Shown here in pieces: positions 1-64,000 of a DNA stretch of 64,000 nucleotides. The stretch is taken from the NCBI GenBank assembly GCA_905178155.1, contig CAJINV010000009.1:2767373-2831372 (forward strand), written 5' to 3'. A program made the position numbers and the translations under genes. The notes under the pieces were generated by a model. The model worked only from the letters and a program-made list of their open reading frames with translations, was not told the origin of the DNA and ran no database searches. The first letter of the stretch is position 1, and each line of letters opens with the position of its first letter. The stretch is from Amoebophrya sp. A120 (Eukaryota; Protista; Dinoflagellata).

Positions 1-111
1 GGTGTTTTCCCTTAGGATTTCTGCATTTACAAGTTTTCTCTCTCATGCAGAAAAATTTGTGTTGCTGAATTGACTACAAATGTGTAACTGTAACACTTTT
101 TTCCTGGGATA
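1..111. mobile_element. introner/MITE family C (truncated by window)
   Basis: right TIR ...CACTTTTTTCCTGGGATA. Confidence 0.8.
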
Positions 112-3100: not shown

Positions 3101-6100
3101 ATCTGCCACTGGCGGCGGCGCCGGCCACTCGCCTGGAAGTCGGGGTGGGGTGACGTCTTTCCCTAGAAAAAACCACAGGAACAGAATTCTTTTGATGATC
3201 GATCGTACGAGCGTTCGGTCGTCCGGAGGAGAGCCCGGTATGAAGGTGCGCAACTCCGCCCCCCCTCTCAGTGGTTGTCATTCTAAACACGAGTCGTGCG
3301 GCGCACTTTGCCTCCCCACTCATGTGCCACGCAGATATGCCAAATCCAGGAGCACGTGTCCAAGCGGCCGCCGCCTTTACTTTTACTTTAGTACAGCCTG
3401 CGCAGCAGTAGCAAATTCCGGGAGCCAAAACAGTACTAAACAAGTACTACGCCCGACATGATAGGAACTTGTGGCCACGCGAAGGCTGCGGCCTATCATG
3501 TCACTCAAATGAGGCGGAAAAGGAGTTGCGCACAATCATACAGGGCGGTAGTTCGGATCCGCCACAGGCCTGGTGCTCCAACAGTTCTTCGTGCTGTTTA
3601 CAGTCCTGCGGCGTGTCCAGTACACTGCGCGTTCGCGTTTGCGTGCCGCGGTTGTCTGGGTTATCCCTGTCGAAGCACGTCGTGGAACACGGTCCCCATT
3701 CGCTCCACTCGGTATACTTGCAGCAGTTGGGAAGTTTGTCCAGCCGCTTTCTGAACTCCTCTACTCCTTTTCCTCCGCTCTTCATCCCGCACGACTTCTT
3801 CTGCTCGCTTTCTTCCTTGTCGCAGACTTTGTTGCCCTCCTCATCGATCCCCCACTTTGTGATGACAACCCACTCAGTGTACTCGGCTCGCAGCAGAAGC
3901 TCGTTCAGCCGTTCCCTCTCCTCTTCTTCGAGACACACCAGTGTTGCCATCTTGTCAAGTTCTTCCTGCAACCCCTTGCAGTTGTCGTCGAAATCGTCCG
4001 TCTCGGTCCACTCACACTTCTCCGGACAGAACTTCGGGCGCGGGTCTTCGTCGGAAACATAACCAAGGAGTTTGTGTGGGATCGGACTGATGGCGCCGTT
4101 GAAGGTGCAATCTTCCTCCCTTACAGTGTCGACCGGGGGGTTGCAGCCTTCTCTCGAACCCGAAATATGCGTGATTGTAATCGTCTTCTTCGGCCGTCGT
4201 GGTGGTTGCAGCAGAGCGATGATACTCGCGGTATCCAAGAATGCAAAAGCATCGCACTCGAACTACAACTAAGTGCAGTACAGCACGACGTGATCAGATC
4301 TGGTCTCTGATGTATGTAGCGCAATACAACTCAGCGTTAGAAATTCCGTTTTTCCTTCATCTGGAAACATTCGTATCTATAATTATGTGCTATCCCTATT
4401 ACGTAGTGCGATACTTTTACTTCTACTTTTGCAATGCATACGCTGCAGCGTCGGGAAACTTGGTCAACTTGCGCGCCGCCCCATGATCATCTGGTTCTGT
4501 GCCTGCTTCGCCGGTTAGTTCTTTGTCATCTGGTTCCCCATCAGCACCGACCTTGATACAAGGATCGGCGTCTGCGATCAGTTTCATTAGGTCAATCTCC
4601 CATTTTTTGCACGCCTCGTCGTCCTCAGTTATCCGCGAAAAAAAAGCCCTTTCTGCAAGAAACTAATCCGCTGCATTTTTGCAATAATTATATGCAAACG
4701 AACAGCACAGCTACGTCTCCCGGCGGCGAACCTCGTCAACCGATCGCTCTGCCAGCCGGGAAAAGAGGAAGCTGCTTTATCGGTCGGCGACGGGGGCGAG
4801 GCATGCAGCAAAGAATGAAAATTGAAATTCCTGTCATGCACTATAGTGCTCATGTAGAACAATTTGCAAAACACATCTTCATCGATGACTTATGAATTAC
4901 GTGTATGTTGGATATGGTATTACAATTACTGCTGGTGTGTAGACTACATGAGTGACGTTCAGTACTTAGAATAGAAAGATGATGATTAATATACAGGGAC
5001 CTCGCGTTTTTACCTAAAGACGAATCGAAATTGATTTGAGATCGCAACAATTGCGGAATAGTGTCTGCGAAGATACGAGTCTTGTACTCCATACCCTTGG
5101 TGCCTGTTACACAAGGGCCGTCGTCGAATTTCTTCGCACAAAAATCATATTTCGGATGACAGGGTTCTGGGCGCTGTACCTCATCCAAACTACCGAGTTT
5201 TTCTTTTTCATCTGGTTCGAAATCGCGGACCCACATCAACTCTAGCAGCTCTTGTGGTGGGCATTGTCCATGCGGTGGCTCTGCTGTGACCGTGACTGTC
5301 ACCGTGGTCAGGTCGTGAATGTCATTATACTACGATGAAAAATGCCCCCACCCCTGAATTTGCAAAAGCTTCTGATGCAAAGTTTAAGTTTGCAAATGAA
5401 AACTTTTTGTCTTGCATGGAAGGACTGCGAGCCTTTCTGATGCAGAATGTAGGCCCGCGGGGTATCTTTTGCATGAGAGATCCGGCTGGTGCTGGCGCTG
5501 GGCTTTTTGCAATTGCATCACAAATTTTCCATGCTGAATAATTCAGCATGGAAAATTTGTGATGCTGATTGATGTATGCAAGACGGGCAGTGTTTCTATT
5601 GGATTTGAAAAGGTTTGCAGTGCAAATGCTACCAAGTTCTGGGGTGGGGGGGATTTTTCACTTTAATATGCCATTTTTTAGTCTCGTCTCCTCAATGTCG
5701 CTGTTGCGGACGAGGCAGCACTTTTTCCGCTTTTCCCCTATAATTTTTTCCTTTAAGTCAGTAACAGAAACAGTTCCTGTTTCGCTAAGACCTTTTATTT
5801 CTAAAAATAGACCATATGCATCTGTTTTGCAGAAGTCGACCGCGGTCATGCTCTTGCTCGCGCTCGCCACCTCCACGATCTCGTATGCATTGCAAATATG
5901 TCTGGGTCTGGAAGGTGGTCACTTGTGATGCTGTCTTTGGATTCCAAAAATTCTGTATTGCATGACTAGCAAGGAAGCGTAGTCTAGTATGTGCTACGCG
6001 GGGAGGGCATTTCTCATGCGGAATAGGCATGAAGCTGCCTTCAAAAAGTCTGCCATACTGAGACATGCATCACAGACATCATGGATCATGCTCATGCAAA

Positions 6101-9100
6101 ATGTGCATGACAAAACTCGCATCCTTCCAGACCCAGACATATTTGCAACGCATATCTCCTCGTCCTTGTTGATAGCGTCGAGATGCTCGTGGCATTTGTT
6201 TATCCTGTGTAAAAACATCCCCACCCCAGAGCTGTCCTGCAGATCGGCACTGACCAGAACGTCTGTGACGCGCATCCCCATGATAGGCATTTCCTCTAGT
6301 CGTGTTTTGGAATTTGTAATGCTGTAAAGAGGACGAGCAGACGGATTTGTAGTTCTGCTGTCCTTGCTAACCTGCACTACACTACGGGCCGCAGCTTGTC
6401 ATGCGTGGCTCCCAAAACTCCTGGATCATCTGTGTTGCAGAGATCCATCCCCAACTTGACTATGGGTGGGGGACGTAGTTTTTCCACAGGATATTGTTTC
6501 GAATGTTTTCTTCCAACTCGCAATCCTTGCAGACATGCGCCGCTTCGTCGCAGTCTTCCTCCTTTTCCATAGGACCCTCTACGCAGTACTCCGGTTCACC
6601 CTCTCTTACTATTTTTTGACGGCGCCACACCTTCTTCTTCTTAGGACGAGTCTCAGACGGCGTCGCGGCCGGGGCAACCGCGTGGTCCACCGCGTGCTTG
6701 TCCGAGTCTGGTGCTGCAGTCTTCGCAATGCAGGGCTCGCATTTTTCAATCTCCGCCCAGTCTGTGTACAGGCACTCTTTGTCGCAGTCAGGACGTTGTT
6801 TGCCCTCGTCCTCAAACTTCTGCCAGCAAGATTTGCGTAGATCGATCATCTCGTGCTCTGTGTCTACTGCGTCAGTACACAAAGGACCCCCGTCCTCGGA
6901 TACGCCACGGAACCGTAATGTTTTAAAAGTCCTCACAATGTACCTCCCACCGCGGTCTTTCTTTTCCTCGTCCGTCATTCGTCTTTTCGTGCCAGGTCCC
7001 AAGTCCCCGTCGACCAAGGGCCAGCAAGGTTCGGGGCATTCATGCTTTTCCACATCACTGTCGTACTCGCACTCTTTTCGACAGAATTTACTATCAGGTA
7101 AGCCGCGGACAATGCAGTCCTTCTCCCTCGCAATCGGCTTCCGCATGCATTCTGGCTTGTTCCGCTCATCTTCGTTTCGGGGAATGCTGAGTTCGTCCCA
7201 CTCTTCTTTGGCCTGGTACAACTCCTCCGCCTCCTCTGTCGTTTTGACCTCGATGCAGTCTCCGTTTCGCGTGATAGGGGGACACTCTTTCTTCGGTTTT
7301 TTCGTCGTAACATACTCGCCACACGGTGGGCAGAAATCTATTTCGCCCGCAAACAACTCGACGCAGTGTTGGGGACCCATCTTCTCTTTTGCGCTAGGAC
7401 ACGCGAAGCCGCCATTTTTCGGAGGGTTACGTATGTTCAGATTGTACTTCACGAGCTGATTGGGCTCATCTGGGCGGAGGCAGGGCGTACACCCTTCAGG
7501 GTCTAGAACCCACTCGTAGTCACAGCTGACCGGCGCCTGCTCAATGATCCACTTGTATGGTTCTGTAGGATCATTTGTAAAAACGTCCCCACCTCCGCAG
7601 AGTTGTCATGCACATTTGCAATGACAGGAACATTTGTAATGCGCATCTCCATGAGAGGGATTTCTAGTCGTGTCTTGGAATTTGTAATGCTGTAACCCGG
7701 ACAAGCAGATGGGTTTGTGATGCGTTTGTCCTTGCTACCCTGCACTACACTACGGACTCCAACTTGTGATGCTCGAGTCCCAAAACTTCTAGGTTTGTGT
7801 TGCAAAGTCCCCATCTTGACTCTGGCGTGTGGGTGTTTTTCCACAGGATATGTAGGGAAAATTACCCAGTCCAGGCGGAACCAATCGTGATACCAATGCC
7901 ACCACACGTACTGACTGATCCACTTCAAATACTCCGTCCAATCGAACACCCAGCGTTGTAGCGCAACATTATGGGACTCTCAAGCGTTACATTCTCAAGA
8001 ACTGGATACACAATTTGTCACGCAGAATCACTATCACACCGCACACGGTCAAACTTCTTCGCATGACAAGTTTTTGCCGCGCTGAATAGCACTACTAGAA
8101 TCATCGCCAAGTCTGTGATGCAAGACACGCAAGGCCCTTGCCTTCCTATTCCTTTTCTTTTGGTAATATTTGGTTGGTTCTAGATCTTAGATGCAGAGAC
8201 GGAAGAACAAGAAGTAACAACGCAACAGTAATAATAGTAACGATTTTGGTAATAATATTCTTGCATGACAAATCGCGTGACAGTTGAGAATGTAACGTCG
8301 TTTGAGAACGCCATACACACGGGTGCCAGATTCCTCCCAATCTTCCCATTTTTCGTCGTCGTTAAAGAGCACGTAGAGGCCGTGGGGGTTGAATCGCCGC
8401 AAACCTTTCCAGGCTTCTATCGTGAGGGAAAATCGCCCCTCCCCATATCTTAGAAATGTTGGCACGCCTCAGACCATTCGCAGCGCTGAGCCCGGGCCAC
8501 AAGTTGTCTCTGTCTACTTGGAAAACGACAGCTCCGTCGCATGATCATGCAGACGGTTTGCAATGCTGTTCTTGGGCCTCGGCCTGCAGCGTAGACATTT
8601 GCCACGCTAGGTGCCTACGTCCAAACCTCTGGGATCAGAGCCAGACTGCAGCACTCTACTACTGCAAGACATATCTGAAGATTTGTGTACTGCTCGTTAC
8701 GCAAGAAACCAGCATCAGAAACTTCGTTGCAATATACTTAATAATGGGACGAGGGGGAATTTTTCCTTTTGATAATCTCCGCGTCACTGCCACATATTTT
8801 CGTCGATTCGCCCACCAACACGGATACCAAACTGAGCTGCACCCGCGTTCCCTCGTCGGTCGCGAGTTGCTCTACCGGATGCTGCGTTGCGAAATTGTTC
8901 ATGTGCTTGAGGTGCAGCTTTCGGAAAGCTTTTTGGCGAACCGGTTCGAGCTCCCCTGCTTCAAGCTCAATCTCGGCATCAGCTGCTCCGGGAACAAGAG
9001 CCGGTGGATGTTTACGAAGCCCAAGCTTGGCCAGCGCCTTAATGTCCATAATGTCCTGTCTGTCGTCGAGTTTGTTCGGGTAGTGGAGCACAGGACGGGA

Positions 9101-54100: not shown

Positions 54101-57100
54101 AAAGTTGAAATAGTTTGCCATGCAGAAAATGGATGCCAGCTGTAACCCAGTTTCCAAGTGTCGCATGACAAATTTGAGCAGAACCGAAATCCCGTTTGTC
54201 ATGCTGTTTGCATAAGGAAGACGCCTTTTGTCATGCTACTTTAGCAGCTCAGTTTCTACCCCTCAATAGGCTTACAATCAGCCTCATTTGGCTACTCTGC
54301 AAGACAGTCACTTTGTGGGTTGCGTTTTATGCATGCCAAATCATTAACTTTGTCAATTTCAATCCTGACGCTTCCATACAGTCCCTCGACCTCGTAAACA
54401 GGGGCGGAGTGCTATCCTGAGCAAAAACGTCCCCAACCCATAGGCAACAAGATGGTAAATCTGCAACAGAAATTTCAAAGTTTTACGAGATGCGCATGAC
54501 AAGTTTCCATCTGCAGTGTAGTGCTGGTTAGCAAGAAGAGCCGCATGAGCAGGAAGCCACTTTATCATCCTGTCCACAGCATCACAAACGCAAAAACACG
54601 ATTGGAAATAACTGTCATGGAGATTGGCATTACAAATCTTCCTATCATGGCGGATACGTTTTTGCACAGGATAACTGCGCCCCCACCTCCCCGAACGGGG
54701 CGAAGACTATACGCGCCTGGAGCAGTTTATGGCGTTCTCAAACGTTACACTCTGAGCCGTTGCATGGATTTGTCATGCCAAACTAGATGATCAGGAGCTG
54801 GTAGATGATCAAGCTGCTTCGCATGACGAATCTCCGAAGCAGCAGGGCTCAACAGCATCTAAATCCGTGCCAAATCTGTGATGCGAAAGCAGCAAGCTTG
54901 CACCTTTGACTGTTCTTGCGGCTCTTGCATCACAAATTCATGTAACAATTGAGAATGTAACGTTTGAGAACACGATACAGTTCCGCGTACCTGCCCCTGG
55001 GCGAACTATCCTGTACAAAAGTGTCGCACTCGTATTGCAATCTTCATGCTCAGTCATGCATTACAAATCCTTTTGCTATATGTAAATCCGCATTACAAAT
55101 TTTATTTCTCATGCTGAGGAAATTTGTCATGCATTTATACGAGTACGATACTGATTTTGCAGTTCATACGAACACACCTGGAAATATTCCCCCCACCGAA
55201 AGGTAAACTTGTTCGTTGCGTCGCGGACGTACAGAGCCCGACACCTGGCACGCCAGTCCGCGCCTGGCTCGAACACCTGCAACAACGCCACGGCGACAGG
55301 TTCGTCTGCAGTCAAGAGCAGGAGCTCCACACCGACGAAGGGCAGTTCGCGGGGCCGCGCAGTGCCACCCTGCACCGAGTCCAGCACTATCCACTGTAAA
55401 TTTCCTGCACACGTACAAATGCGGTCTCTGCATGGCAAGACTTGGCTTCGATCCTAGTTTAGCACGACAAGTTTCATCACACTCCAAATTGGAAAAAAAT
55501 CTGTGATGCGACCTTGTACATGTACGGGAGATTTGTATTGCATAAGCACATAGAAAATCGCATTGAAGAACGCCCGGGCTTTGATCTTGTTCATATCAAA
55601 TGTCAAAGTGTCTGGGTCTGCGTCTGGAAACTTGTGACGCTGGGTGGCGTCTCATGATGAGGCCACAAATGCTGGCCCAGCATGACAAGTTTCTGAGCTT
55701 CTAGGTGCTGCCTACAATTCTGCATGACAAACTGCGTTTCTGCATCACAGAAGAATGGAGCTCTTGGGTAACGTGCATGACAGATTTAAGAGTCATGCCA
55801 GACAAGCATGACAAACATGCATTCTTCCAGACCCAGACATTTTTCCAGTTGATAGTTCATCCGGAGACGTAACTCGACATCCTGACTCTCTGCTTCCAGT
55901 TTCTCCCATCTCATATTTTTCAAGTAATACGGTTGGTCCAAAAGTAAAATGTAGTTCAGCATTTCTTGGTCCCATTCCATGGCAATCCGCATCGGCTTGA
56001 GAATCGGCTGTGCTATTCGCTTCGCGAGCTGAAAGATTCCCCGGTCCTCAATGCCTCGTTTGATATGAAACTTTTGCTTCATCTCCTGCTGTGCCCGCCT
56101 GAACAACAAATTTTCGGTGGCCACATCGCCCCTTGCTTCCGGAGAAGGCGCCGCGCCGGCTCTCACCAGATCTAGGGGGCTCACCAGCATAGTGACGTGC
56201 CACCATTCGGTGCGAAATAAGCCATTTTCTTCTTTCGTGCTCCCTCCGGATGCCCGCGACCTCGTCTCCTGGTCCTTCACGTCCGTCCAGAGCCGAATAG
56301 CCTCCAGGTAGATCAACGAGTCCGCTGCATCCTGGTCCACCGGGGTCTTCTATGAACTGCAAAAGTATCGTACTAGTATAAATCGCATGACAAATTAGCT
56401 CAGCTTGACAAATTAATTTGTCATGCTGTTTTACCTTGGGATGAAGATTTGTAATGCATGACTGCGATTACTACGAGTGCGATACTTTTGCACAGGATAT
56501 CTTCAAGGGTACGGCAACATCGACATCCCCCCCCAAGAGGCCGATCAGGTAGGCCTGAGCCTGCCACACATAAAAACCGATCCCGTGCTGCGAATCGCCT
56601 TCGTCCTCGTCCGGCTGCACCACATTTGGCCAGAGCCGGATGTGGCAGTTGATCCGCGGCACCACGGGCATGGTTTCAAACGCTGTGAAATACCGTGCGG
56701 TGGCCTGATTCCCGGGATGAGGATTGTACGCCGGCGGCTTCTGCGCGGACCAACCCGGAATCTTGTACAAGACTCCCTCGCGGACAGTCCGCGCCCAGCC
56801 CAGCGTCTTGGTGAGTGCATACGTGATCCCCGGCCTGGCGCGAACCGGAAGAATCACGCCCAGCAGTGCGTCCGCGGGATTGCTCTGGAAATGCATCTCG
56901 TGCAGCTGTTTGTAGCGAACCCACCAGAACATCAAGAAAAAATGATCCTCGAGGCGGCGGTGAGAGTTAAAATGGGGCGGCAGACCCACGGACTGCATTC
57001 ATCGCAAATATGTCTGGGTCGGGAAAGAATGGGATTTGTGACGCGGTCTCTGGATCCTAAAAAAATTTGCATTGCATGACCAGAAAGAGGGGCCCAGTTT

Positions 57101-60100
57101 GTGCTACCCGGCGGGAAGGACATTTGTCATGCGGAGTAGGTATCGTTCTACCAGGAAGCCCCCTAAAAAAAAAAATCTGTAATGCTAGGTCATGCATTAC
57201 AAGCATCGCGGCCGTGGGTAGTTATGCAAAATATGCATGACAATGACAAATCTTCTGGCAATCATCTACTTCACCAGACCCGACATATTTACATTTGATA
57301 GACTGCTCGTGGTATCCAATCTTGAACCGGATGTTGGTCCGGATCGTCAACTCCCACGAGTAGACAAAATTCCAGCGGTGCTTATTGCGAGGAACGATCC
57401 CCCCTCTCCATATCAACGCGGGACCTCTGCCGCTGGACTTGCGTACAACACAAATCAGCCCTGTGGGGATGGTTTTGGCCTAGGCGCTCAGCATGACAGA
57501 AGTCTATGCTGTAGGCCCAGCAGCATCAACCCCGCCGGCATAATGCGCGACGTCCTCTGAGTTTGCATTCTTGCAAGATGACGTGCGCGATGGATTTCTT
57601 GTGGCCACAAATAAGCATGACAAATTTCCAAACATATACGACCTTTTCAGTATGGGGAGGAGGGATTTTCTCCGACGATAATGCTCGTACTCCATTCGCT
57701 TCCGGACCGGGTACAACCAAGAGGCGAGAGCGTAGATTCCCAGGAGCGCTGAGACCGTCTCTAGAAGATCCTCGGCCACTAACACCAGCAAGGCAGCCTG
57801 CCCCAATGCAGTGTATCCGCCGTGGAGCACAACTATTTCGTCAGAAAATTCGCCGAGAAAGGGGACATCAGGCAAAATCGGCACGTGCAATTCTGTCTCC
57901 GCGACGCCTTCGGCACTCCACAGATCCACCTTCTTGGCGATGGCCTCGTCCCAATCTTCGTGCATGAACCCCTGCTTGACGCGCTTTACTTTTAGCGTTT
58001 CTACTTCGGGAACGCCTGGGTGGTGAATAACAGTTGCAGGGTGGTGTATCATGTGGACCGCATACCCTTTGTCCGGGTACCAGGTGTCGTCTGGATCCAA
58101 ATTTTTGGGTTGAGCCAACACCTCTCTTCCGTCAGGATGAGTTTCGTGGGCCCATTCCAAAATCCTCGGCTTTTCATAGTGTTCAAAGAAAAAGTTAAAA
58201 AACTTGTCTGGTACTTCATGATTAAAACCGAAATGCTCAACCTGCTGGCCTGCTTTTACAACACAGAAATCTGTGGCACAGGGTGCGAAAGGCTTAAAAC
58301 GTGGCTTGCGGCCTGCGGTAGGAGCTGTGGGCAGTATATTCAACAAACCAAGAGGAGCAACGAGCGCGCCACGACTGCTGCAGAAGGCCCAGGCACAAGA
58401 CGCCGCATCTCGTCGCACATCTTTAAGAACCCGCGGCCAACGACGCAGGCTGAGGTGGTGCAGGCGGCTGGCTGCAACTTTGTTTGTAGCCGCCTCCCGG
58501 GGAGTCATCGGCTATTTCTGTAGACTGTGACTGATAACTCGCGCGGCGCTTCAAAAATAAATGCTATGCGCACACCGGCCGCGGCAAGAGCGTGGGGGAA
58601 GGGCTGACGGTCAGGGCGCTTCATTCTCATCCCCAGGCCGCCGGCCGCAGGCAGGTGCCCGCCGCCAAATAGATTCAGCCTGCTGCGAAGGCGATAGCCC
58701 CACAACAGAACGCCCCGAAAGGTCGCGCGCCAAAGGCAAAGCGAACCAAAAGAAAAACACCCACCGGAACCAAACGCGGCGCAAGCAGGCAGCCGGCCAG
58801 GACGGCCAAGCGGCGCGGCCCCATAGGAGAAGCAAGGCGAAGAGCTGCGGGCCCGGGCCAACGCTAGCGCGACCGACATAGCTGGGGCAGGGGGGGGCTA
58901 CGGCCAGGAGGTGACGCAATGGCAACGAGCCGAGAAAATGCGCGAAACCACCGCGCCGCTTACGCTGTGCGCGTCGTGGCACAGGGCAAACAACTCCCGG
59001 GGACCAAAACCGAATGGGGGCGGCTCATGAAAATGGTTGGCCGAGGCAGGCCATGCTCTTCGCCGGTCGCTTCTTTCCTACCCATCGGCCGAGGACCGCT
59101 TTTCGGAAACAAAACCAAGCCACCGACCCGGCCCGCCGCCCCGCCCCCCGGAGAGACCGGCGCCAAAACCACCCAGCCCGGGCCAACCTGCTCGGCTTTG
59201 GCCTTTTACGGCGCCCAACGTTTGGCAAGCTGCCTAGGTAGCCTCTCAGGTTTTCGCGTAGTTTTCGCGCTTCGATTTGTTCCCGCTTTGCCTTCTAGCG
59301 CTTCGCCGCGAAAGCGCACTGAAGCGAATTGGCGCAAATTTTTTCCCACCTCATAGTCCGCGACCAAATGGCGCAGAGACTAACGCGCGACCAGCGCGCG
59401 CAGATATATCAACGCGACCCGCACCGCGATCAAATGAGCGGGCCCCGGCAGAGAACACCAGATGGAACCAGGGCGGGCGCTGGCGGGGTGAAAGGAAGTG
59501 GCGCAAGACTCCCCAAGCCCGGGCAAACGGAAACCAAAGCGGCAGATGAACAATAAAGCGCGCGCCCGCACCAAGCTGAGAGGGCGGCAAGCAATTCGCC
59601 CAGGGGCCGCCGGCCTGCCGAAAGCCCAGAAGAGGCAGCGGCCCACAAAGGTGGCCACCATGGCTGGGCAAGAACTAGGCCAGCAAGTCCGCGCGTCTTG
59701 CTATGGACCGGAGAACACGATGGCGGGGCACACACGAAAGGGCGCTGAGAAGCACAGAGCACGGCGAGAGAATGCACAGGCCCCAAGGAAACCGAGGCCG
59801 GACCCCCGGTCGCATACATCAGAAGAACACGCCCGCGGCTAGGCCAAGAAAAGGGAAGCGAACCACCAACGCCGCCACTTTTGGCACTGCTGCGCGTACT
59901 TGCCCAAACTTGCAGGGGGGATTGTGCCTCTAGATCTTTGCAAGCCGAGGGCGGCTACATTCAGGCCGATGCTTTGCGCGCCTCCGTCCCAACCATGCAT
60001 CCAAAAAGCGGCAGGCCTCTCTGCCAGGGACCTCGGTTACGTGGGCCAGTACCAGTAGCAGCCCTGTGCCAAGTCTTTACTTTGTGGCACTTCGGTCGCG

Positions 60101-63100
60101 TGAAATATGTGGCGCAGGAGGGCCGGCCGCGCGCTCCGGTCGGACTCGGATGGCGCCACCGGGCGAAGTACTCCTACTAGCTAGGGCACTCAGCGGAAAA
60201 ACTCTAGCACCTTGCTGCAGCCACGCAGCAGATGGAAGGCGCAATAAGGCGCCCTTGCGGTTTATTCCGTCCCCATGGAAAGAGCGGCCCACTTTTCGCG
60301 AGGTCGCTTCCCAAATTGAAATCTGGGAAGCGCGAAGCGCTGGACGAGTGCTGTGGTGCGCAAAAAAAGCCAGCAATACCCGCGAAAGCCAAATCTAAAC
60401 TCTGGAGAGAAGCAGGCAAAACGGGGCACAGTTGCGACCACTGCTGCGCGTTCCTCCCACTTCCCGAAAGCTGGCGTCAGCTGTGCCACGTCCTCAGAAG
60501 TTAGGCTTTGCAGTGGTTCAATGGCGCGCTTTGTGCGCCGTCTGCAGTTAGTATATAAGCTGTCTTCCTTGTAAGTAAATACTTAAAAAGGCGAAACACA
60601 TCCGCGCCGCGACAACTGGGCCTGCGACTCCGTGGGCTGCCTACTTTGAGTCGACATCAGCTTCACAGCTGCGATATAGTGCCTACATGATAAAACGGCG
60701 CACGTGCTGGCTAGCTCTTGTCGTCGGCTTTGTTTTATTCCCTTTGCCTATTCTCACAAACGAAACTCCTTAAGAGCCTCCCTTCTTAAGCCTTTCCCTT
60801 AGGACGCTTCTTAAAAAAGGGGGGGGGCGCGGAATCGATCAGGCCACGCGGCTTTATTTTTGCGCCGGCAGTGGGCTGCGTTTTTCTGTGTGCCTTGGCG
60901 CAAATTTTTACCAGCCAGAAAACCGCGCCCACAGCATGGGCGCTCATCCATGGGGAAAAATGAAGGCGATTTTTTTCAGGGAAATTTTTCAAGGAGCATC
61001 GTTAAGGGCATTCGCAAGGAGATCTTTAAGGGGACTGCTAAGGGCCGGGGGCCCGTCGAGCGGCCCACGCGATTTGGCCAGGAGACTGACAGGGCGCGAA
61101 GCCCTACCATGAACAGCACGGCCGCCAGGGACAACAACAGGGGGGCCAATACCTACGCGCAAGCCAGCCGGCAGGCTACCTACCTAGCACGCGGCCACCG
61201 GAAGGCCCCCTCGCAACAACCAGCAGACGCTACCTGGCGCGCGGCTGGCAACGAACCGGAACGCGGGCGGCAGACGGAGGGCAGCCAGTGTGGCAGCCGA
61301 CAGACTATCGTCGGCCGGAAGGCGAGCGGCAGACAGTCGGCAGGCCAGCGGCGCCCGATATGTAACTAAGGACACGGGCGGCAGCCGGCGGGCCCGCTAC
61401 CCAAAGGCGGCCGGGAGCCTAGCGCCAGCCGCCAGGCTCGCGGCTGTCGGTAGGCGAGCGGCGCCCGGCAAGAACGCGGGCGGCGCCAGAGGCGGCCCCC
61501 AGACTGCCGGCGAGCAGCCGGAAGGCTTGCGCGCGGCAGCCGACAGGCTAAGGACGGGCAGGCGGGCGGCAGGCTAGCAGCGGCCGGCAGGCTAGCGACG
61601 GCTGGGTAGCCCAGCGGCAGCCGGCCGGCTGGAAGCGGCCGGAAGGCTAGCACCGGCGGGCCGGCCCATGGGCTAGCAGCCGCTCGGCCCGCGGGCCAGC
61701 GCCAGCCGGCAGGCCGTCGATGGCCGACAGGCTAGCGGCGGGCGGCTGGTAGGCCCGCGGCAGCCGGCAGGGGGGCAAACAAACAGCGGCCGGAAGGCTA
61801 GCAGCGGCCGACAGGCTAGCGGCGGCCGGAAGGCTAGCTACTTAGCAGCGGCCGGCCCGTGGGCCAACAGGCAGCGGCCGGCCGGTTGGCTAACAGACAG
61901 CGGCCGGCCAGCAGTTTAGCGGCCGCCGGGAGGCCAGCTGCACCCACACAACACGCGCGCCAACGGCAGGCTGGCGGAAAGCAGCCGATAGAGGACTACC
62001 GGAACGCAGGCGGCAGGCTAGCTCCCTCGATGGCGCGGCAGGGGCAAGCAGCTGCCGGCCCGTCCCGCCAGCGGGTGGCGAGTAAGATGGCGGCCCGGCA
62101 GGCTATCCACATAGATAGCGCGGGCGGGGCACCCAAGCTGCTGGCGCGGGGCTGTCGAAAGCCGGCGCGCGAACGCACCCAGCACTTACACTGACACTGG
62201 GCCCCCTCTCCATGTCTCTTTGCAGTTTACTCAGTCACCGACGTACCGGTCGCAACCGACAATCCCAAGCCCAGGCGGGCTCAGCAGGGCTCGCCCCGCG
62301 GCTCCTTACATAAGCTGAGGCCGACTTCGCCATCCCCCTGCGGCGCCTTTCGCGCCATCGCCTACGCCATCACCTCCAGCAGAGCGATGCTACAACTTCA
62401 GGGCGAAATAAAACGTCTCCAATGTTCGCCAGTTGTGTTAGAACCTTTTTCCTGCGCCACAGATTTCTGTGTGGTACCCTTATACGATACGGTGTCGAGC
62501 CTGCGGCCTCCGCCACCGTCTACCCAGTTGTGCCAGGACTGCATCGATATGTCGCGCGTGGCGACATATTCCATACTAGTGTCGCCGTACTTGTTCGTCG
62601 TTTTGACATACTTTACGCCCAGTTCTCGCTCCAGTAAATCGGCCATCTGTCTCCCCTTTGCCGTCGATCGGTCAAACATCGTGTGCCCCTCGGCGTCGAT
62701 CTTTAGACTTCCAAAATGGCCGTAAGGTTCCCAGTCCTCCTCATACTCAAAGTCATCAGGAACCTGTGTCCCCGGAGGAAAGGGGATGGGGTACCCCACG
62801 TAGTACGGGTTAACACGGCTCGGCGCTTTAAGGACGATGTCCTTCTCGGTCCACGGCACTTTTGTCGTTGTCCCAGGGATCTTCTTCGGTGTATCGTAAG
62901 CGGGGACAGTCTCGTCCCAAGGCGCCTCTTTCCATTCCCCAGTCGGAACGGACTCAACGGTCTCCTCCACCTCCACCTCCTCTTCTGGTCTCCTAATGGC
63001 CAGCGCTATTTCGGTGCCGTCCGACTTTGTCAAGGTGCCATCGCGCATGTCGTAGTAGCGCCGCACCTCGTCCGCGTCTGCTACATCTTCATGCGGAACA

Positions 63101-64000
63101 TCAAGCGGTTGGTGTGTAACGGGATCCAGGATGTCTCCAGTCCGAACGAGTTTCCTCTTGCGCCAATCCTGGCCGACACCTTCTCCAAAATTATGAAAAA
63201 GCTTCATAAGCACGTGCTCGTACTTTTTGTGCAGTACTTTTTTTTGTCCCTCTGTTGCTTCAGTTGCAGGATCTTCCTCCTCTCCATACAATAAGATTCC
63301 AACAGCCCAATTCACGTCATCTCGGTCGAGGAAATTATCCCAAGCGTTCATCATATGGCGTTCTCAGCCGTTACATTCTCAACTGTCACAGGGTTCGTTT
63401 GTCATGCAAAATGACCATAAGCCTTCCGCAACACGATCAAGGTGCTTCGCATGACAAATTTTCGAAGGGCTCAACACCACCCGAATGTACCTAAATTTGT
63501 AACGCAAAGCGCGCAGTCTTCCCGAGTTCACTTTTGCTGTTCTTGCATGATAAATTCATGTTGTAACAGTTGAGAATGTAACATTTGAGAATCCCGTACA
63601 TCACCTCGCCTAATTTCGAACCGGCGTCGCCGAGACGTTTTTTGCCGAAAATATTCAAGTGATGAAACACGTCTCCTTTCACTTCCTGATTGATGATCCA
63701 TTCCTGCTCCTTCGGGGAAAGCTTCTCCCAGTCCTTCGGCTTTTCCAATAGGTTGTCCCATTTGTGGTCCCACTCGATCCGCTGGCCCTCGTCCCCAGAT
63801 ATTGCAAGCTCCTTGTCTCCGCCAGTGACTTCGTACCCCTTTGTATCAGGAAACAACTCATGGAGCTGATCAAGCACCCAGTCCTTATTGGTAAATGTTG
63901 GAACTTTTTTCACTTTTGACAAAGGTGCCTCGAGAACCTCCCCAACGTTGTCGAGGAGGTCTATCCCGTGGCTCTCGAGGAGATCTACCCCGTGGCGGTA
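1..64000 (-). CDS. Giant multi-exon gene (partial at both ends); repetitive protein with about 11 copies of an unrecognised module plus TSP1-like Cys-rich segments; about 125 TIR-element introns
   Basis: Exon ORFs join in frame after removing each TIR element plus one 5-bp TSD at more than 60 junctions translated by hand, e.g. PQA|STSVYWY, GFL|RLKK, YKG|GQQVEH. Frame is open at 64000 and runs into an element at position 111. Confidence 0.85.
112..446 (-). CDS. exon of giant gene
   Basis: frame of ORF 74..409, bounded by TIR elements. Confidence 0.8.
447..708. mobile_element. introner family A
   Basis: TIRs; TSD CGTCT/GGTCT. Confidence 0.9.
709..963 (-). CDS. exon of giant gene
   Basis: frame of ORF 626..844; both junctions in frame. 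Confidence 0.8.
964..1242. mobile_element. introner family B
   Basis: TIRs; TSD CAGGA. Confidence 0.9.
1243..1453 (-). CDS. exon of giant gene
   Basis: frame of ORF 1231..1440; GYLSGFL motif. Confidence 0.8.
1454..1650. mobile_element. introner family C
   Basis: TIRs; TSD ATGCT. Confidence 0.9.
1651..3238 (-). CDS. large exon, one repeat module (GIILPL, EPWQVVAFLAGFL, RVLLDLT, IIVVT)
   Basis: ORF 1628..3253. Confidence 0.9.
3239..3540. mobile_element. introner family H (diverged)
   Basis: TIRs; TSD CCCGG/CAGGG. Confidence 0.8.
3541..4231 (-). CDS. exon with thrombospondin type-1-like repeat
   Basis: CKYTEWSEWGPCSTTC...GTQTRTRSV...C...C in ORF 3501..4238. Confidence 0.9.
4232..4440. mobile_element. 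introner family G (diverged)
   Basis: TIRs; TSD CGCGG/CGCTG. Confidence 0.8.
4630..5060. mobile_element. highly decayed introner
   Basis: residual TATCCGCGAA / TTGCGGAATA; removal plus 5 nt restores frame. Confidence 0.55.
5061..5324 (-). CDS. Cys-rich exon
   Basis: frame of ORF 4850..5302. Confidence 0.75.
5325..5668. mobile_element. introner family J
   Basis: TIRs; TSD TGTCA/TGCCA with 3 extra nt. Confidence 0.8.
5884..6154. mobile_element. introner family A
   Basis: TSD TCTCG/TCTCC. Confidence 0.9.
6201..6493. mobile_element. introner family B
   Basis: TSD TTGTT. Confidence 0.9.
6494..7568 (-). CDS. Cys-rich exon with degenerate TSP1-like repeats
   Basis: ORF 6460..7452: NGGFACP, CLYTDW...CEPC...VWRRQKIV...C. 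Confidence 0.9.
7569..7850. mobile_element. introner family B
   Basis: TSD TGTAG. Confidence 0.9.
7970..8315. mobile_element. introner family D with AT-rich internal insertion
   Basis: TSD AACAT/CACAC. Confidence 0.85.
8418..8774. mobile_element. introner family E
   Basis: TSD GCTTC/ATCTC. Confidence 0.85.
8775..9445 (-). CDS. exon of giant gene
   Basis: ORF 8738..9538; VATVLGHDC motif. Confidence 0.85.
9446..9756. mobile_element. introner family F
   Basis: TSD AGCTC. Confidence 0.9.
9757..10833 (-). CDS. exon, repeat module (GFTPWQVVAYLVGYL, FYRGYEDAY, NARILLDAT, HVEILIVT)
   Basis: ORF 9717..10808. Confidence 0.9.
10834..11095. mobile_element. introner family A
   Basis: TSD CAGTG. Confidence 0.9.
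11096..11484 (-). CDS. exon of giant gene
   Basis: ORF 11031..11444; GWVLPL motif. Confidence 0.85.
11485..11804. mobile_element. introner family E
   Basis: TSD CGGGC. Confidence 0.9.
12017..12248. mobile_element. introner family C
   Basis: TSD TCTCG. Confidence 0.85.
12310..12531. mobile_element. introner family M
   Basis: TSD TGTTT/TGCGT. Confidence 0.85.
12683..12955. mobile_element. introner family D
   Basis: TSD AGTAA. Confidence 0.9.
12956..13568 (-). CDS. exon, low-complexity Ser/Pro/Ala linker
   Basis: ORF 12908..13564. Confidence 0.8.
13569..13821. mobile_element. introner family A
   Basis: TSD CAGGT. Confidence 0.9.
13921..14196. mobile_element. introner family B
   Basis: TSD ACTGG. 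Confidence 0.9.
14259..14494. mobile_element. introner family H
   Basis: TSD AACGT. Confidence 0.9.
14643..14815. mobile_element. introner family G (diverged)
   Basis: TSD CCCCG/CGCCA. Confidence 0.8.
14874..15057. mobile_element. introner family K
   Basis: TIR TATCCCACAGAAAAAAGCTGGCAGG; TSD TGTTC. Confidence 0.9.
15108..15412. mobile_element. introner family E
   Basis: TSD ATTTT/ATTCT. Confidence 0.85.
15525..15781. mobile_element. introner family H
   Basis: TSD GTCAC with 3 extra nt (TAA). Confidence 0.85.
15863..16097. mobile_element. introner family D
   Basis: TSD ACCCA. Confidence 0.9.
16180..17667. mobile_element. introner family F hosting a nested foldback element
   Basis: TSD CTCCT. 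Confidence 0.9.
16314..17489. mobile_element. 1.18-kb foldback-type TIR element (family N), nested
   Basis: about 258-bp near-perfect TIRs, TAT...ATA termini, TSD TGAGG, two internal hairpins of about 130 bp. Confidence 0.92.
17740..18011. mobile_element. introner family A
   Basis: TSD ATCGC. Confidence 0.9.
18157..18395. mobile_element. introner family D
   Basis: TSD CAGAG. Confidence 0.9.
18457..18761. mobile_element. introner family J
   Basis: TSD AAACG. Confidence 0.9.
18841..19074. mobile_element. introner family D
   Basis: TSD CCCGG. Confidence 0.9.
19146..19457. mobile_element. introner family B
   Basis: TSD TGGTC. Confidence 0.9.
19525..19791. mobile_element. introner family A
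   Basis: TSD CTTTC/TTTTG. Confidence 0.85.
19861..21004. mobile_element. introner family D carrying a repetitive insertion of about 0.8 kb
   Basis: TSD TAGCG; family D halves on both sides. Confidence 0.85.
20058..20635. repeat. degenerate AGAGGTCGACAGAGGT units (direct and inverted) and 12-13 bp CCCTCTCGCGC(C)A tandem array
   Basis: visible tandem units at 20058-20370 and about 20548-20635. Confidence 0.75.
21093..21360. mobile_element. introner family A
   Basis: TSD CTGAC. Confidence 0.9.
21361..21693 (-). CDS. exon, module motif FSPFEAGFYLLGLL
   Basis: ORF 21356..21751. Confidence 0.8.
21694..21969. mobile_element. introner family C
   Basis: TSD GGCAA. Confidence 0.9.
22030..22184. 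mobile_element. introner family G
   Basis: TSD AGAAA. Confidence 0.9.
22185..22454 (-). CDS. exon, GSIILPL motif
   Basis: ORF 21941..22408. Confidence 0.8.
22455..22604. mobile_element. introner family G
   Basis: TSD TCGTC. Confidence 0.9.
22639..22963. mobile_element. introner family E
   Basis: TSD TTTAG. Confidence 0.9.
23019..23173. mobile_element. introner family G
   Basis: TSD GTCAT/GTCGG. Confidence 0.85.
23253..23577. mobile_element. introner family E
   Basis: TSD TCGTG. Confidence 0.9.
23750..23906. mobile_element. introner family G
   Basis: TSD TGGTG. Confidence 0.9.
23953..24209. mobile_element. introner family A
   Basis: TSD CCGCT. Confidence 0.9.
24281..24541. mobile_element. 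introner family A
   Basis: TSD CGTGG. Confidence 0.9.
24570..24892. mobile_element. introner family B
   Basis: TSD CCGCG/CCGAG. Confidence 0.85.
24923..25071. mobile_element. introner family G
   Basis: TSD CAAGG. Confidence 0.9.
25072..25325 (-). CDS. exon of giant gene
   Basis: ORF 25012..25308. Confidence 0.8.
25326..25590. mobile_element. introner family I
   Basis: TSD ATCCC. Confidence 0.9.
25600..25807. mobile_element. introner family O
   Basis: TIR TAT-AGAA-GAAAAAAGTT(T/C)GTCAC; TSD CGGAG. Confidence 0.88.
25845..26053. mobile_element. introner family C (tandem pair)
   Basis: TSD TTTCA x3. Confidence 0.9.
26059..26273. mobile_element. introner family M (tandem pair)
   Basis: TSD TTTCA x3. 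Confidence 0.9.
26324..26472. mobile_element. introner family G
   Basis: TSD CCCGT/TCCGT. Confidence 0.9.
26580..26936. mobile_element. introner family J
   Basis: TSD AGGTG/GGGCG. Confidence 0.85.
27068..27372. mobile_element. introner family F (variant)
   Basis: TSD AGCGA. Confidence 0.88.
27428..27771. mobile_element. introner family E
   Basis: TSD GGTGT/AGTGT. Confidence 0.9.
27845..28107. mobile_element. introner family A
   Basis: TSD CCTGT. Confidence 0.9.
28108..28661 (-). CDS. exon, NARILLDASG / HVELLVVT / VAHLLGGNC motifs
   Basis: ORF 27738..28613. Confidence 0.88.
28662..28893. mobile_element. introner family C variant (tandem pair)
   Basis: TSD GTTTT x3. Confidence 0.9.
28899..29113. 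mobile_element. introner family C (tandem pair)
   Basis: TSD GTTTT x3. Confidence 0.9.
29168..29327. mobile_element. introner family G
   Basis: TSD CAGCA. Confidence 0.9.
29414..29747. mobile_element. introner family E
   Basis: TSD CAGTT/CACTT. Confidence 0.9.
29832..30070. mobile_element. introner family D
   Basis: TSD CATGG. Confidence 0.9.
30199..30468. mobile_element. introner family A
   Basis: TSD GCACT. Confidence 0.9.
30469..30768 (-). CDS. exon, GWTAWQAAAYLAGFL motif
   Basis: ORF 30424..30774. Confidence 0.85.
30769..31091. mobile_element. introner family E
   Basis: TSD CGCGG. Confidence 0.9.
31333..31589. mobile_element. introner family A
   Basis: TSD GTCGT. Confidence 0.9.
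31643..31907. mobile_element. introner family A
   Basis: TSD CACTT/CACCT. Confidence 0.9.
31935..32169. mobile_element. introner family D
   Basis: TSD TGCAG. Confidence 0.9.
32284..32500. mobile_element. introner family C variant
   Basis: TSD CAGCG. Confidence 0.88.
32582..32696. mobile_element. introner family L (shortest, 115 bp)
   Basis: TIR TATCCAG(A/G)AAAA...CACCCATCCCCATCC; TSD GTTGA. Confidence 0.9.
32752..33030. mobile_element. introner family A
   Basis: TSD CGCAG. Confidence 0.88.
33113..33266. mobile_element. introner family G
   Basis: TSD CCCAG. Confidence 0.9.
33291..33549. mobile_element. introner family A
   Basis: TSD TCGTG. Confidence 0.9.
33550..33831 (-). CDS. exon, KIVLDMT / QLLVLT motifs
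   Basis: ORF 33512..33928. Confidence 0.82.
33832..34152. mobile_element. introner family E
   Basis: TSD GCCCT/CTCCT. Confidence 0.88.
34271..34529. mobile_element. introner family A
   Basis: TIRs; TSD diverged; frame restored by removing 5 extra nt. Confidence 0.85.
34601..34931. mobile_element. introner family E
   Basis: TSD TGACC. Confidence 0.9.
35026..35277. mobile_element. introner family A
   Basis: TSD CTGTC. Confidence 0.9.
35278..36726 (-). CDS. large exon, mostly low-complexity linker
   Basis: ORF 35220..36716; both junctions in frame. Confidence 0.88.
36727..36970. mobile_element. introner family C
   Basis: TSD AAAGC. Confidence 0.9.
37054..37200. mobile_element. introner family G
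   Basis: TSD TCCCC. Confidence 0.9.
37258..37543. mobile_element. introner family B
   Basis: TSD GAACT. Confidence 0.88.
37544..37898 (-). CDS. exon, VADVLGGDC / NPFGLYVLFN motifs
   Basis: ORF 37532..37840. Confidence 0.82.
37899..38177. mobile_element. introner family A
   Basis: TSD TTGGC. Confidence 0.9.
38343..38667. mobile_element. introner family E
   Basis: TSD TCGTG. Confidence 0.9.
38794..39074. mobile_element. introner family A
   Basis: TSD TGATC/TGATG. Confidence 0.9.
39225..39391. mobile_element. introner family G
   Basis: TSD ACACG/GCACG. Confidence 0.85.
39538..39827. mobile_element. introner family B
   Basis: TSD TTCTG/TGGTG. Confidence 0.85.
39934..40240. mobile_element. 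introner family F
   Basis: TSD AGCAA. Confidence 0.9.
40377..40638. mobile_element. introner family A
   Basis: TSD CTCCA. Confidence 0.9.
40687..40999. mobile_element. introner family G with internal insertion
   Basis: TSD ACCAC/GCCAC. Confidence 0.88.
40766..40931 (-). mobile_element. 166-bp insertion with 15-bp TSD (possible non-LTR retroposon 3' end or SINE)
   Basis: CCTCATGCTGAGAGT at 40751-40765 and 40932-40946; no TIRs. Confidence 0.6.
41148..41408. mobile_element. introner family A
   Basis: TSD GTTCC. Confidence 0.9.
41409..41815 (-). CDS. exon of giant gene
   Basis: ORF 41364..41774. Confidence 0.78.
41816..42067. mobile_element. introner family I
   Basis: TSD CAGGT. Confidence 0.9.
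42291..42502. mobile_element. introner family C
   Basis: TSD CGATG. Confidence 0.9.
42587..42880. mobile_element. introner family D (diverged)
   Basis: TSD AACGG/AATGG. Confidence 0.8.
42951..43262. mobile_element. introner family A (diverged)
   Basis: TSD TCCTC/TCACC. Confidence 0.82.
43312..43467. mobile_element. introner family G
   Basis: TSD TGCAC. Confidence 0.9.
43563..43771. mobile_element. introner family M
   Basis: TSD GGGCC/ATGCC. Confidence 0.88.
43772..44177 (-). CDS. exon, ARILIDAT motif
   Basis: ORF 43735..44352. Confidence 0.85.
44178..44436. mobile_element. introner family A
   Basis: TSD CAACC. Confidence 0.9.
44437..44889 (-). CDS. exon, TPEAAAWYILGL motif
   Basis: ORF 44371..44901. 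Confidence 0.82.
44890..45178. mobile_element. introner family A (diverged)
   Basis: TSD GTGGG/GTGTG. Confidence 0.85.
45357..45631. mobile_element. introner family A
   Basis: TSD CGGCC. Confidence 0.9.
45838..46004. mobile_element. introner family G
   Basis: TSD CTGCG/CTGTG. Confidence 0.9.
46164..46480. mobile_element. introner family I
   Basis: TSD TCCGG/TCCTC. Confidence 0.85.
46481..47317 (-). CDS. exon, GRIVLDAT / QLMILT motifs
   Basis: ORF 46396..47211, frame open further upstream. Confidence 0.88.
47318..47594. mobile_element. introner family A
   Basis: TSD TGAGC/TGAAC. Confidence 0.88.
47651..47803. mobile_element. introner family G
   Basis: TSD TTTGC. Confidence 0.9.
48004..48331. 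mobile_element. introner family E
   Basis: TSD TAGGC. Confidence 0.9.
48371..48582. mobile_element. introner family M
   Basis: TSD TTTAG/TTTGG. Confidence 0.9.
48762..49084. mobile_element. introner family E
   Basis: TSD CACCG. Confidence 0.9.
49112..49371. mobile_element. introner family F
   Basis: TSD TTCCC. Confidence 0.9.
49622..49913. mobile_element. introner family B
   Basis: TSD CTTTT. Confidence 0.9.
49961..50309. mobile_element. introner family E
   Basis: TSD AACCT. Confidence 0.9.
50368..50628. mobile_element. introner family A
   Basis: TSD CCGGG. Confidence 0.9.
50629..51008 (-). CDS. exon, ARIVMELS / PVELLLLS motifs
   Basis: ORF 50546..50953. Confidence 0.82.
51009..51270. 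mobile_element. introner family A
   Basis: TSD CCCGA. Confidence 0.9.
51347..51611. mobile_element. decayed introner, family E-like
   Basis: residual TIRs; removal plus 5 nt restores frame. Confidence 0.7.
51612..52119 (-). CDS. exon, GFQYWEAQCYLLGFL motif
   Basis: ORF 51515..52099. Confidence 0.85.
52120..52459. mobile_element. introner family E
   Basis: TSD CGTAG/CGTGG. Confidence 0.9.
52610..52871. mobile_element. introner family H
   Basis: TSD AACCC/GATCC. Confidence 0.85.
52930..53197. mobile_element. introner family A
   Basis: TSD CGCAG. Confidence 0.9.
53269..53563. mobile_element. introner family A
   Basis: TSD CGAGT. Confidence 0.9.
53586..54046. mobile_element. introner family G with its right TIR split by a nested E element
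   Basis: TSD ACGAC/ACAAC. Confidence 0.85.
53711..54031. mobile_element. introner family E, nested
   Basis: TSD TATTT. Confidence 0.9.
54074..54378. mobile_element. introner family F
   Basis: TSD CAGTC. Confidence 0.9.
54413..54673. mobile_element. introner family B
   Basis: TSD AGTGC/ACTGC. Confidence 0.88.
54728..54977. mobile_element. introner family D
   Basis: TSD CAGTT. Confidence 0.9.
55007..55168. mobile_element. introner family G
   Basis: TSD CGAAC. Confidence 0.9.
55388..55544. mobile_element. introner family P
   Basis: imperfect TIRs; TSD AGCAC. Confidence 0.82.
55594..55854. mobile_element. introner family A
   Basis: TSD GTTCA. Confidence 0.9.
55855..56350 (-). CDS. exon of giant gene
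   Basis: ORF 55786..56340. Confidence 0.85.
56351..56499. mobile_element. introner family G
   Basis: TSD TCTTC. Confidence 0.9.
56500..56995 (-). CDS. exon, GVILPV / GFYVWQAQAYLIGLL motifs
   Basis: ORF 56471..56998. Confidence 0.85.
56996..57300. mobile_element. introner family A (diverged)
   Basis: TSD GACTG. Confidence 0.85.
57383..57680. mobile_element. introner family E
   Basis: TSD GTGCT/ATGCT. Confidence 0.88.
57681..58256 (-). CDS. exon of giant gene
   Basis: central part of ORF 57504..58508; joins 62477 exon in frame. Confidence 0.85.
59870..60330 (+). pseudogene. possible degraded protein-kinase relic inside the 4.2-kb element
   Basis: ordered motifs over two frames: LLRVLAQTCRG, GYIQAD, FTLWHFG, TRMAPPGEV, SHAAD, KERPTFREV. 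Confidence 0.35.
61280..62000. repeat. decayed GC-rich tandem array, unit about 18 bp (GGCTAGCAGCGGCCGGAA-like)
   Basis: clearest units at about 61784-61838. Confidence 0.7.
62477..63353 (-). CDS. exon of giant gene (acidic)
   Basis: ORF 62398..63354. Confidence 0.88.
63354..63598. mobile_element. introner family D
   Basis: TSD CATCA. Confidence 0.9.
63599..64000 (-). CDS. exon of giant gene, open at window edge
   Basis: ORF 63491..63922; frame open to 64000. Confidence 0.85.

Follow-up and report, generated by a model that had tools for sequence, protein, structure and literature searches.

How most introns of the marine parasite Amoebophrya are removed is an open question, and the published picture is one of variable repeats and variable splice sites. 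The window analyzed here, a stretch of 64,000 nucleotides from Amoebophrya sp. A120, raised this question within a single gene. A giant interrupted gene on the minus strand occupied positions 112-58511, about 58 kb, with its 3' end past the window edge, and 121 top-level elements bounded by TAT...ATA lay inside it. Beyond it were a GC-rich (64%) intergenic stretch that held no element (58512-62397) and a second minus-strand gene (62398-64000), which was interrupted by one element at 63354-63598 in the duplication CATCA. The initial annotation had described one giant gene from 1 to 64000; this description held as far as 58511, and the second gene lay past approximately 3.9 kb of element-free DNA.

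When inverted ends flanked by duplications of k bp were sought in an unbiased scan, TAT...ATA at k = 5 made up 22 of the 30 strict matches. Profile scanning of the ends and non-overlapping pairing, in which at least three of five flank matches were required and the reading frame was not used, gave 108 automatic elements. One of these calls was reclassified as nested and 16 more interruptions were placed by hand, which resulted in 123 top-level interruptions in the window (107 automatic and 16 by hand) with a summed length of 34,004 bp, or 53% of the window. All were TAT...ATA elements except the interruption at 4630-4958, leaving 122. The element total was 125, made up of 121 top-level copies in the giant gene, the single one in the second gene, two nested copies and a partial one. 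After masking, no further element was found in the whole window besides the partial one at 1-111, which matched a library element at 91% over 114 nt. The 5-bp flanks of the 123 interruptions were identical in 84 cases, and matched at four of five positions in 22, at three in 13, at two in 3 and at one in 1. BLAST grouped the elements into families of 32, 16, 16, 10, 10, 10, 6, 3, 3 and 3 copies plus 14 singletons, close to the hand counts of the initial annotation. Its total of 127 elements was also nearly right, while its coverage of about 60% applied to the gene span only and not to the window.

The top-level elements of the giant gene, each in a 5-bp duplication and placed by the profile scan or by hand, extended from 447 to 57680. 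In the first third they were located at 447-708, 964-1242, 1454-1650, 3239-3540, 4232-4440, (4630-4958, not an element), 5325-5668, 5884-6154, 6201-6493, 7569-7850, 7970-8315, 8418-8774, 9446-9756, 10834-11095, 11485-11804, 12017-12248, 12310-12531, 12683-12955, 13569-13821, 13921-14196, 14259-14494, 14643-14815, 14874-15057, 15108-15412, 15528-15781, 15863-16097, 16180-17667, 17740-18011, 18157-18395, 18457-18761, 18841-19074, 19146-19457, 19527-19791 and 19861-21004. These were followed by 21093-21360, 21694-21969, 22030-22184, 22455-22604, 22639-22963, 23019-23173, 23253-23577, 23750-23906, 23953-24209, 24281-24541, 24570-24892, 24923-25071, 25326-25590, 25600-25807, 25845-26053, 26059-26273, 26324-26472, 26580-26936, 27068-27372, 27428-27771, 27845-28107, 28662-28893, 28899-29113, 29168-29327, 29414-29747, 29832-30070, 30199-30468, 30769-31091, 31333-31589, 31643-31907, 31935-32169, 32284-32500, 32582-32696, 32752-33030, 33113-33266, 33291-33549, 33832-34152, 34271-34529, 34601-34931, 35026-35277, 36727-36970, 37054-37200, 37258-37543, 37899-38177, 38343-38667 and 38794-39074. 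The remainder lay at 39225-39391, 39538-39827, 39934-40240, 40377-40638, 40687-40999, 41148-41408, 41816-42067, 42291-42502, 42587-42880, 42951-43262, 43312-43467, 43563-43771, 44178-44436, 44890-45178, 45357-45631, 45838-46004, 46164-46480, 47318-47594, 47651-47803, 48004-48331, 48371-48582, 48762-49084, 49112-49371, 49622-49913, 49961-50309, 50368-50628, 51009-51270, 51347-51611, 52120-52459, 52610-52871, 52930-53197, 53269-53563, 53586-54046, 54074-54378, 54413-54673, 54728-54977, 55007-55168, 55388-55544, 55594-55854, 56351-56499, 56996-57300 and 57383-57680. The longest element-free exon was 1,583 nt. The element at 40687-40999 was about 160 bp longer than its family and carried a GC-rich internal insert.

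An analysis of the ends revealed one terminal motif, TAT-N7-AAA, common to both ends of all families, and the “at least 15 TIR types” recorded initially turned out to be its variants. Each end began with TAT, continued with C or G and a variable stretch, and reached an A-run at positions 11-15. T, A and T were present at 240, 239 and 238 of the 246 ends, and A at positions 11-13 in 187, 195 and 226. Both orientations occurred in all 12 multi-member families, with 36 of 102 copies in the minority orientation. The elements were short, bounded by terminal inverted repeats, flanked by a constant target duplication and present in many copies, as MITEs are. Ten long elements were inspected, six pairs from the related loci described below and four from the window, and the ORFs listed for nine of them included no obvious transposase. 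Copies within a family were 66-81% identical on average. The terminal 3 nt matched the consensus in 301 of 312 cases (96%) versus 82% for the interior (p = 8e-15; three families, 52 copies), a difference partly inflated because the elements were detected by their ends. Predicted folds joined both ends in 116 of the 121 elements; positions 4-7 of the ends paired in only 56-70%, and the two ends of the same copy were no more complementary than shuffled ends in four of five families (p = 0.019, uncorrected, in the fifth). A GY-AG (GT/GC-AG) register within the duplication was possible at 7 of the 123 sites and absent from the other 116, so that GT(GC)-AG boundaries of the canonical U2 or Micromonas type, carried or co-opted, were not the rule. 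No consistent base bias was found at the cuts in the window and the related loci. At position 5 of the duplication, purines were favored in the window (p about 0.03-0.05), a bias that did not recur in 94 oriented elements from the related loci. The 5-bp duplication without consensus, as originally described, was thus borne out by the window flanks and the base counts at the cut sites.

When each element was deleted together with 5 nt at 122 sites, a continuous minus-strand reading frame of 8,010 codons with no stop was obtained between 58511 and 112, still open where the window ends; about 8,300 codons had been expected. Deletion of the element plus 0, 1, 3, 4, 6 or 7 nt gave 128-200 stops, and random phases gave a mean of 171 and a minimum of 111 in 500 trials. 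All 39 junctions at which both sides had a single open frame were in phase, including 33 of 33 among the automatic calls. The in-frame stops and frameshifts that the initial annotation had named as refuting its reading did not appear at the reconstructed junctions. Canonical introns that are free of stops and a multiple of 3 nt long could still lie within the large exons under this reconstruction. One-sided deletions of +2 and +8 nt gave 2 and 4 stops, respectively, and some +2 or +8 geometries cannot be told apart from +5 by the window stops alone. In one such geometry the intron extends a single base beyond the element at either end, so that every insertion adds one codon; it produced 1 stop in 115 window junctions, with 1.6 expected. 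Independent evidence on the length of the deletion was provided by a related assembly.

The terminal pattern was scanned over 14 of the 64 parts of a metagenome collection, which yielded 152 loci (L001-L152) from one related assembly, none overlapping the giant gene. Adjacent ends were paired without using the flanks, giving 306 elements, 300 of them under 450 bp. An exact 5-bp duplication was present in 235 of these 300, whereas any other length from 2 to 9 was seen in at most 27 and an exact 6-bp duplication in none. Conserved genes were found among the flanking ORFs (Pfam scan, 130 of the 140 listed), and some elements lay inside conserved domains of housekeeping genes, namely KIN17 (L033), SNF2 (L014), DNA ligase I (L010) and enoyl-CoA hydratase (L029), which are good assay targets. 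The L033 protein was 92% identical to A120 KIN17, and an element there stood beside a mapped ordinary GT-AG intron. Comparison of L033 with A120 KIN17 and of L014 with two SNF2 orthologues, one named A25, showed that removal of the element plus 5 nt scored best at five of six junctions, with one tie. Among 120 SNF2 homologues, +5 was preferred by 117 and 96 at two junctions. The phase test on the related loci, a weak test, gave 22, 13 and 10 (p = 0.02). Internal repeats of the giant protein placed +5 best at 10 of 22 junctions, +8 at 7 and +2 at 4, with one tie. At the ligase junction the PDB alignment placed the downstream side only; the spacing across it, which we take to match human ligase I, was not counted as evidence.

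These comparisons bear directly on the geometry with one base on each side. At each of the three KIN17 junctions its score fell 11 short of that for +5, and it was also lower at two of the three SNF2 junctions. In its favor, family 2 introns in the published A120 annotation start with N-T in 69% and end with A-N in 68% of 9,716 cases (PMC12130899). Among these annotated boundaries GT/CT/AT and AG/AC are over-represented, as would be expected from an aligner that slides to a motif-like edge inside a perfect 5-bp repeat. The family 2 boundaries would fit either such sliding or the two-base geometry; the homologues favor sliding, and we consider the two-base geometry improbable. Precise removal of the element with one duplicate, as first proposed, was therefore supported by the frame, by the independent 5-bp count and by the homologues.

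To locate the cuts within the duplication, mismatched duplicates were used, at which the coded residue tells which copy stays. At least 2 nt of the upstream duplicate were kept in KIN17 and at least 3 nt in SNF2. The element at 27428-27771 has a mismatched duplication, and a stop arises there if the intron begins exactly at TAT, with all 5 nt kept, which limits the number kept to at most 4. Ten residues with a paralogous repeat scored 0.5, 12, 17.5, 23.5, 23.5 and 22.5 for 0 to 5 nt kept. Together these bounds suggest an intron that likely opens 1-2 nt ahead of TAT and closes 3-4 nt past ATA, an estimate drawn from about a dozen informative residues. Codon usage was ambiguous between registers, and one or two sites (aa 1716 and 5504), judged by eye, favored the other duplicate.

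The placement of the elements was not uniform. Two clear nested copies and two elements with foreign inserts were found in the window, where at least 81 nested copies were expected under uniform insertion. Neighbors were spaced 40-79 nt apart in 43 cases (18.6 expected) and less than 20 nt apart in 5 (11.8 expected). Both patterns were replicated in the related loci, in which 48 of 175 spacings fell at 40-79 nt and none of 292 elements lay inside another recognizable element. Targeting by chromatin or a bound protein, or selection on exon size and intron structure, could account for them. The 3.9-kb intergenic stretch, a single gap, contained no element, with about 20 expected at exon density, which fits a removal that needs transcription. 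The earlier view that any insertion is nearly neutral was accordingly too broad, since the terminal TAT is conserved, nesting is rare and the intergenic gap is empty.

The same gap bears on a programmed DNA excision in an expressing nucleus or life stage, comparable to that of ciliate IESs, in which a domesticated transposase would reverse the insertion. Ciliate IESs are bounded by TA, and the symmetric ends, orientation independence and removal of exactly one duplicate all fit a DNA reaction. However, the assembled DNA retains every element, we know of no germline/soma split in Amoebophrya, and copies in this one intergenic gap would be equally harmless, yet none was present. DNA excision thus appears quite unlikely. 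For the giant gene, the literature and the empty gap instead point to removal at the RNA level. A120 has 66,565 RNA-seq-supported introns, over 60% of them non-canonical, as reported in Farhat 2021 (PMC7789003).

No RNA records were listed for 33001-43000. For 1-20000, three raw RNA runs gave element-end matches only (26, 7 and 430 reads), and the RNA contig set X6 covered exons in patches. Of the 24 RNA joints for this region from the three runs and X6, the 15 listed included no exon-exon joint. One X6 contig matched 277-446 and ended at an element edge with three unplaced letters, which is compatible with splicing and too thin to count. In run X5, about 430 reads carried a 40-nt match to the element end at 1203-1242 inside unrelated flanks; their source is either an abundant RNA in which a single element end is retained or another organism. 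If the elements were kept in the mRNA, ribosomes could hop between matching codons of the two duplicates, and the reported junctions would be template switches of reverse transcriptase. Hairpins with direct repeats favor such switching, and a 5-nt repeat always contains one full in-frame codon. Mismatches, however, were equally common inside (36 of 366) and outside (25 of 244) this codon, the two copies specified different amino acids at 19 of 122 junctions, and 121 hops on one message are implausible. Ribosomal bypassing was rejected on the mismatch distribution and the differing amino acids, and we regard it as extremely improbable.

We consider it probable that non-autonomous TIR copies in 5-bp duplications are cut from the pre-mRNA by a system that reads their ends and not GT-AG. 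The insertions would be made in trans by an integrase-type DDE transposase (IS3EU/GingerRoot/Ginger-like), as suggested by the TA..TA ends, the constant duplication and family 38 of A120. In the RNA, the inverted ends may pair and act as a ruler, which would agree with the terminal conservation, the orientation independence and the lack of a cut-site consensus. The 5' cut would likely lie 1-2 nt ahead of the first UAU, and the 3' cut 3-4 nt beyond the last AUA. Because these offsets would sum to the duplication length, the original coding sequence would be restored, and insertions in exons would be tolerated as long as both ends are intact. As the catalyst we slightly favor a relaxed, U1-less spliceosome, since the 5' end, at a 1-nt offset, would read N-UAU(G/C) and resemble a GUAU donor whose first base is free, and since the 3' arm would provide a run of U about 11-15 nt from the end whichever way the element is oriented. 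The resemblance to a GTAT donor was weak (1.7-fold in a crude screen), and the sole mapped canonical donor starts with GTAC.

The same geometry could be produced by a stem-recognizing endonuclease and an RNA ligase that release the element in linear or circular form, a route proposed for the nonconventional introns of Euglena, with only the catalyst differing. No base is conserved at either cut, exons are as short as 5 nt, and U1 was not detected in A120 (PMC7789003). In Euglena the paired motif, N3CDG...CHGN5-6|R, has fixed spacers, and distinct factors have been proposed (PMC12501133). On the other hand, nearly all spliceosomal proteins and U2, U4 and U6 are present in A120, and 15% of its canonical introns share the repeat layout (PMC7789003); the element ends gave no covariation signal. 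Cutting and ligation is thus a plausible reading, somewhat doubtful on balance. If a catalyst other than the spliceosome were at work, the elements would be excised from RNA in a scarless, sequence-free way, by a system that parallels that of euglenids. A still more tentative extension is a general RNA de-transposition in A120, in which one machine with a chemistry other than the spliceosome reads one transposon-end motif at fixed offsets that sum to the 5-bp duplication of one integrase-type transposase, needs no sequence at the cuts, and is accompanied by a transposase that avoids copies yet lands 40-80 nt away. If this unlikely extension were true, most of the tens of thousands of non-canonical A120 introns would be one transposon class under one rule.

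The element system itself is already published; what is added here is a rule that is quantitative and testable, together with two patterns of placement that were replicated. By their sequence features the window elements very likely are the introner elements of Amoebophrya A120, and the earlier link to them was right. The introner definition in PMC7789003 comprises an inverted repeat of TAT, seven variable bases and at least three A, direct repeats of 3-5 nt, repeated families of about 240 nt, no transposase and non-canonical boundaries without GT-AG, all found in the window. That text gives 3-5-nt repeats, variable splice sites and no family-specific rule, with 5-bp direct repeats named in the legend of Figure S19, whereas one 5-bp duplication and one excision rule applied to all families seen here. 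The giant gene and the related loci reduce the published picture to terminal TAT-N7-AAA, a 5-bp duplication and fixed-offset cuts summing to 5. The rule tells which base to expect wherever the two duplicates differ, allows gene models to be corrected, and points toward an integrase-type transposase with TA..TA ends and a 5-bp duplication.

Dataset S7 of Gozashti 2025 (PMC12130899) lists 58 A120 introner families, which likewise include TIR DNA elements and tens of introns in single genes. Its automated duplication calls are 2-6, 11 or none, the origins given are TIR, LTR, non-LTR or unknown, and splice sites are labeled co-opted or carried, in contrast to the single class without GY-AG at 116 of 123 sites in the window. 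Its family 38, a TIR family, is annotated “Ginger; 5-bp TSD, TA/TA termini” with Copia/Gypsy-like ORFs, so that the mobilizing enzyme, initially considered unresolved, is a less open matter. According to Kojima 2023 (PMC10045372), IS3EU and GingerRoot, which have integrase-type DDE enzymes, show the same TA..TA termini but usually make 6-bp duplications, and Ginger2 combines such an enzyme with a 4-5 bp duplication; the likeness concerns ends and duplication. Micromonas and Aureococcus introners (PMC11282704) are also MITE-like TIR elements that lie within target duplications and turn into introns, but in them one splice site is brought by the element and the other is co-opted from the duplication, which has no consensus in the window. 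The nonconventional introns of Euglena (Nomura 2025, PMC12501133) similarly have a paired terminal motif at a fixed distance from non-canonical cuts and a MITE-like origin. They differ in their CDG/CHG motif, in spacers of 3 and 5-6 nt and in the purine that follows the 3' cut, as against TAT/ATA, likely spacers of 1-2 and 3-4 and no replicated purine bias; the Euglena signature was absent from the window elements, and the likeness is one of layout only. A single 5-bp rule, cut register or nesting avoidance for these elements was not found stated in the open-access literature covered.

The claims that every intron is a TIR element and that there is no GT-AG intron held at 121 sites of the giant gene and probably failed at one. 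The interruption near 4630-4990 lacked the sense 5' terminal repeat and a family, and its original placement had used knowledge of the frame. It is probably an ordinary minus-strand GT-AG intron at 4649-4994 (GTATAT...TTTCTTGCAG), chosen on its motif among many enumerated in-frame GY-AG pairs, and would be the single exception to the element rule. Two pairs of tandem elements, each pair with one common duplication, were separated by exons of 5 nt, TTTCA (26054-26058) within 25845-26273 and GTTTT (28894-28898) within 28662-29113; a third exon, at 25591-25599, had 9 nt. Removal at these sites needs no exon definition or proceeds stepwise.

The element at 16180-17667 (duplication CTCCT) hosted a nested, younger element of 1,176 bp at 16314-17489 (duplication TGAGG), with long near-perfect inverted repeats, repeated internal palindromes, a longest stop-free stretch of about 140 codons and an end motif that fits the same TAT...ATA class. 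The sense 5' terminal repeat of 53586-54046 was split by a nested copy at 53711-54031, and its first 13 nt were intact. The element at 19861-21004 contained an insert of about 840 bp that was 78% identical to an insert in an element of a different family at L018:105-1208. Its occurrence in two families and two assemblies makes a separate mobile unit or cargo exchange possible.

The giant-gene product, of at least 8,000 aa, is a novel protein by its predicted sequence, with internal self-repeats. Several domain copies with motifs like FTPWQAAAYLLGFL and RRNARILLDAT and a cysteine-rich stretch were noted. A Pfam scan of 13 exon pieces gave only TSP1_spondin in exon 3546-4229 (E 2e-08, below the curated cut-off), which corresponds to a TSP1-like domain near aa 7160-7215. 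No relative of exon 35283-36725 was found among proteins of 843-2,405 residues, and none of exon 9762-10832 in viral contigs, a 50%-cluster library or, above 0.87, the Atlas. A role in adhesion or invasion would be a guess. The first exon of the giant gene (58250-58290) and the end of the second-gene ORF (62440-62480) shared a short inverted DNA similarity, with CATDFCVV encoded on opposite strands.
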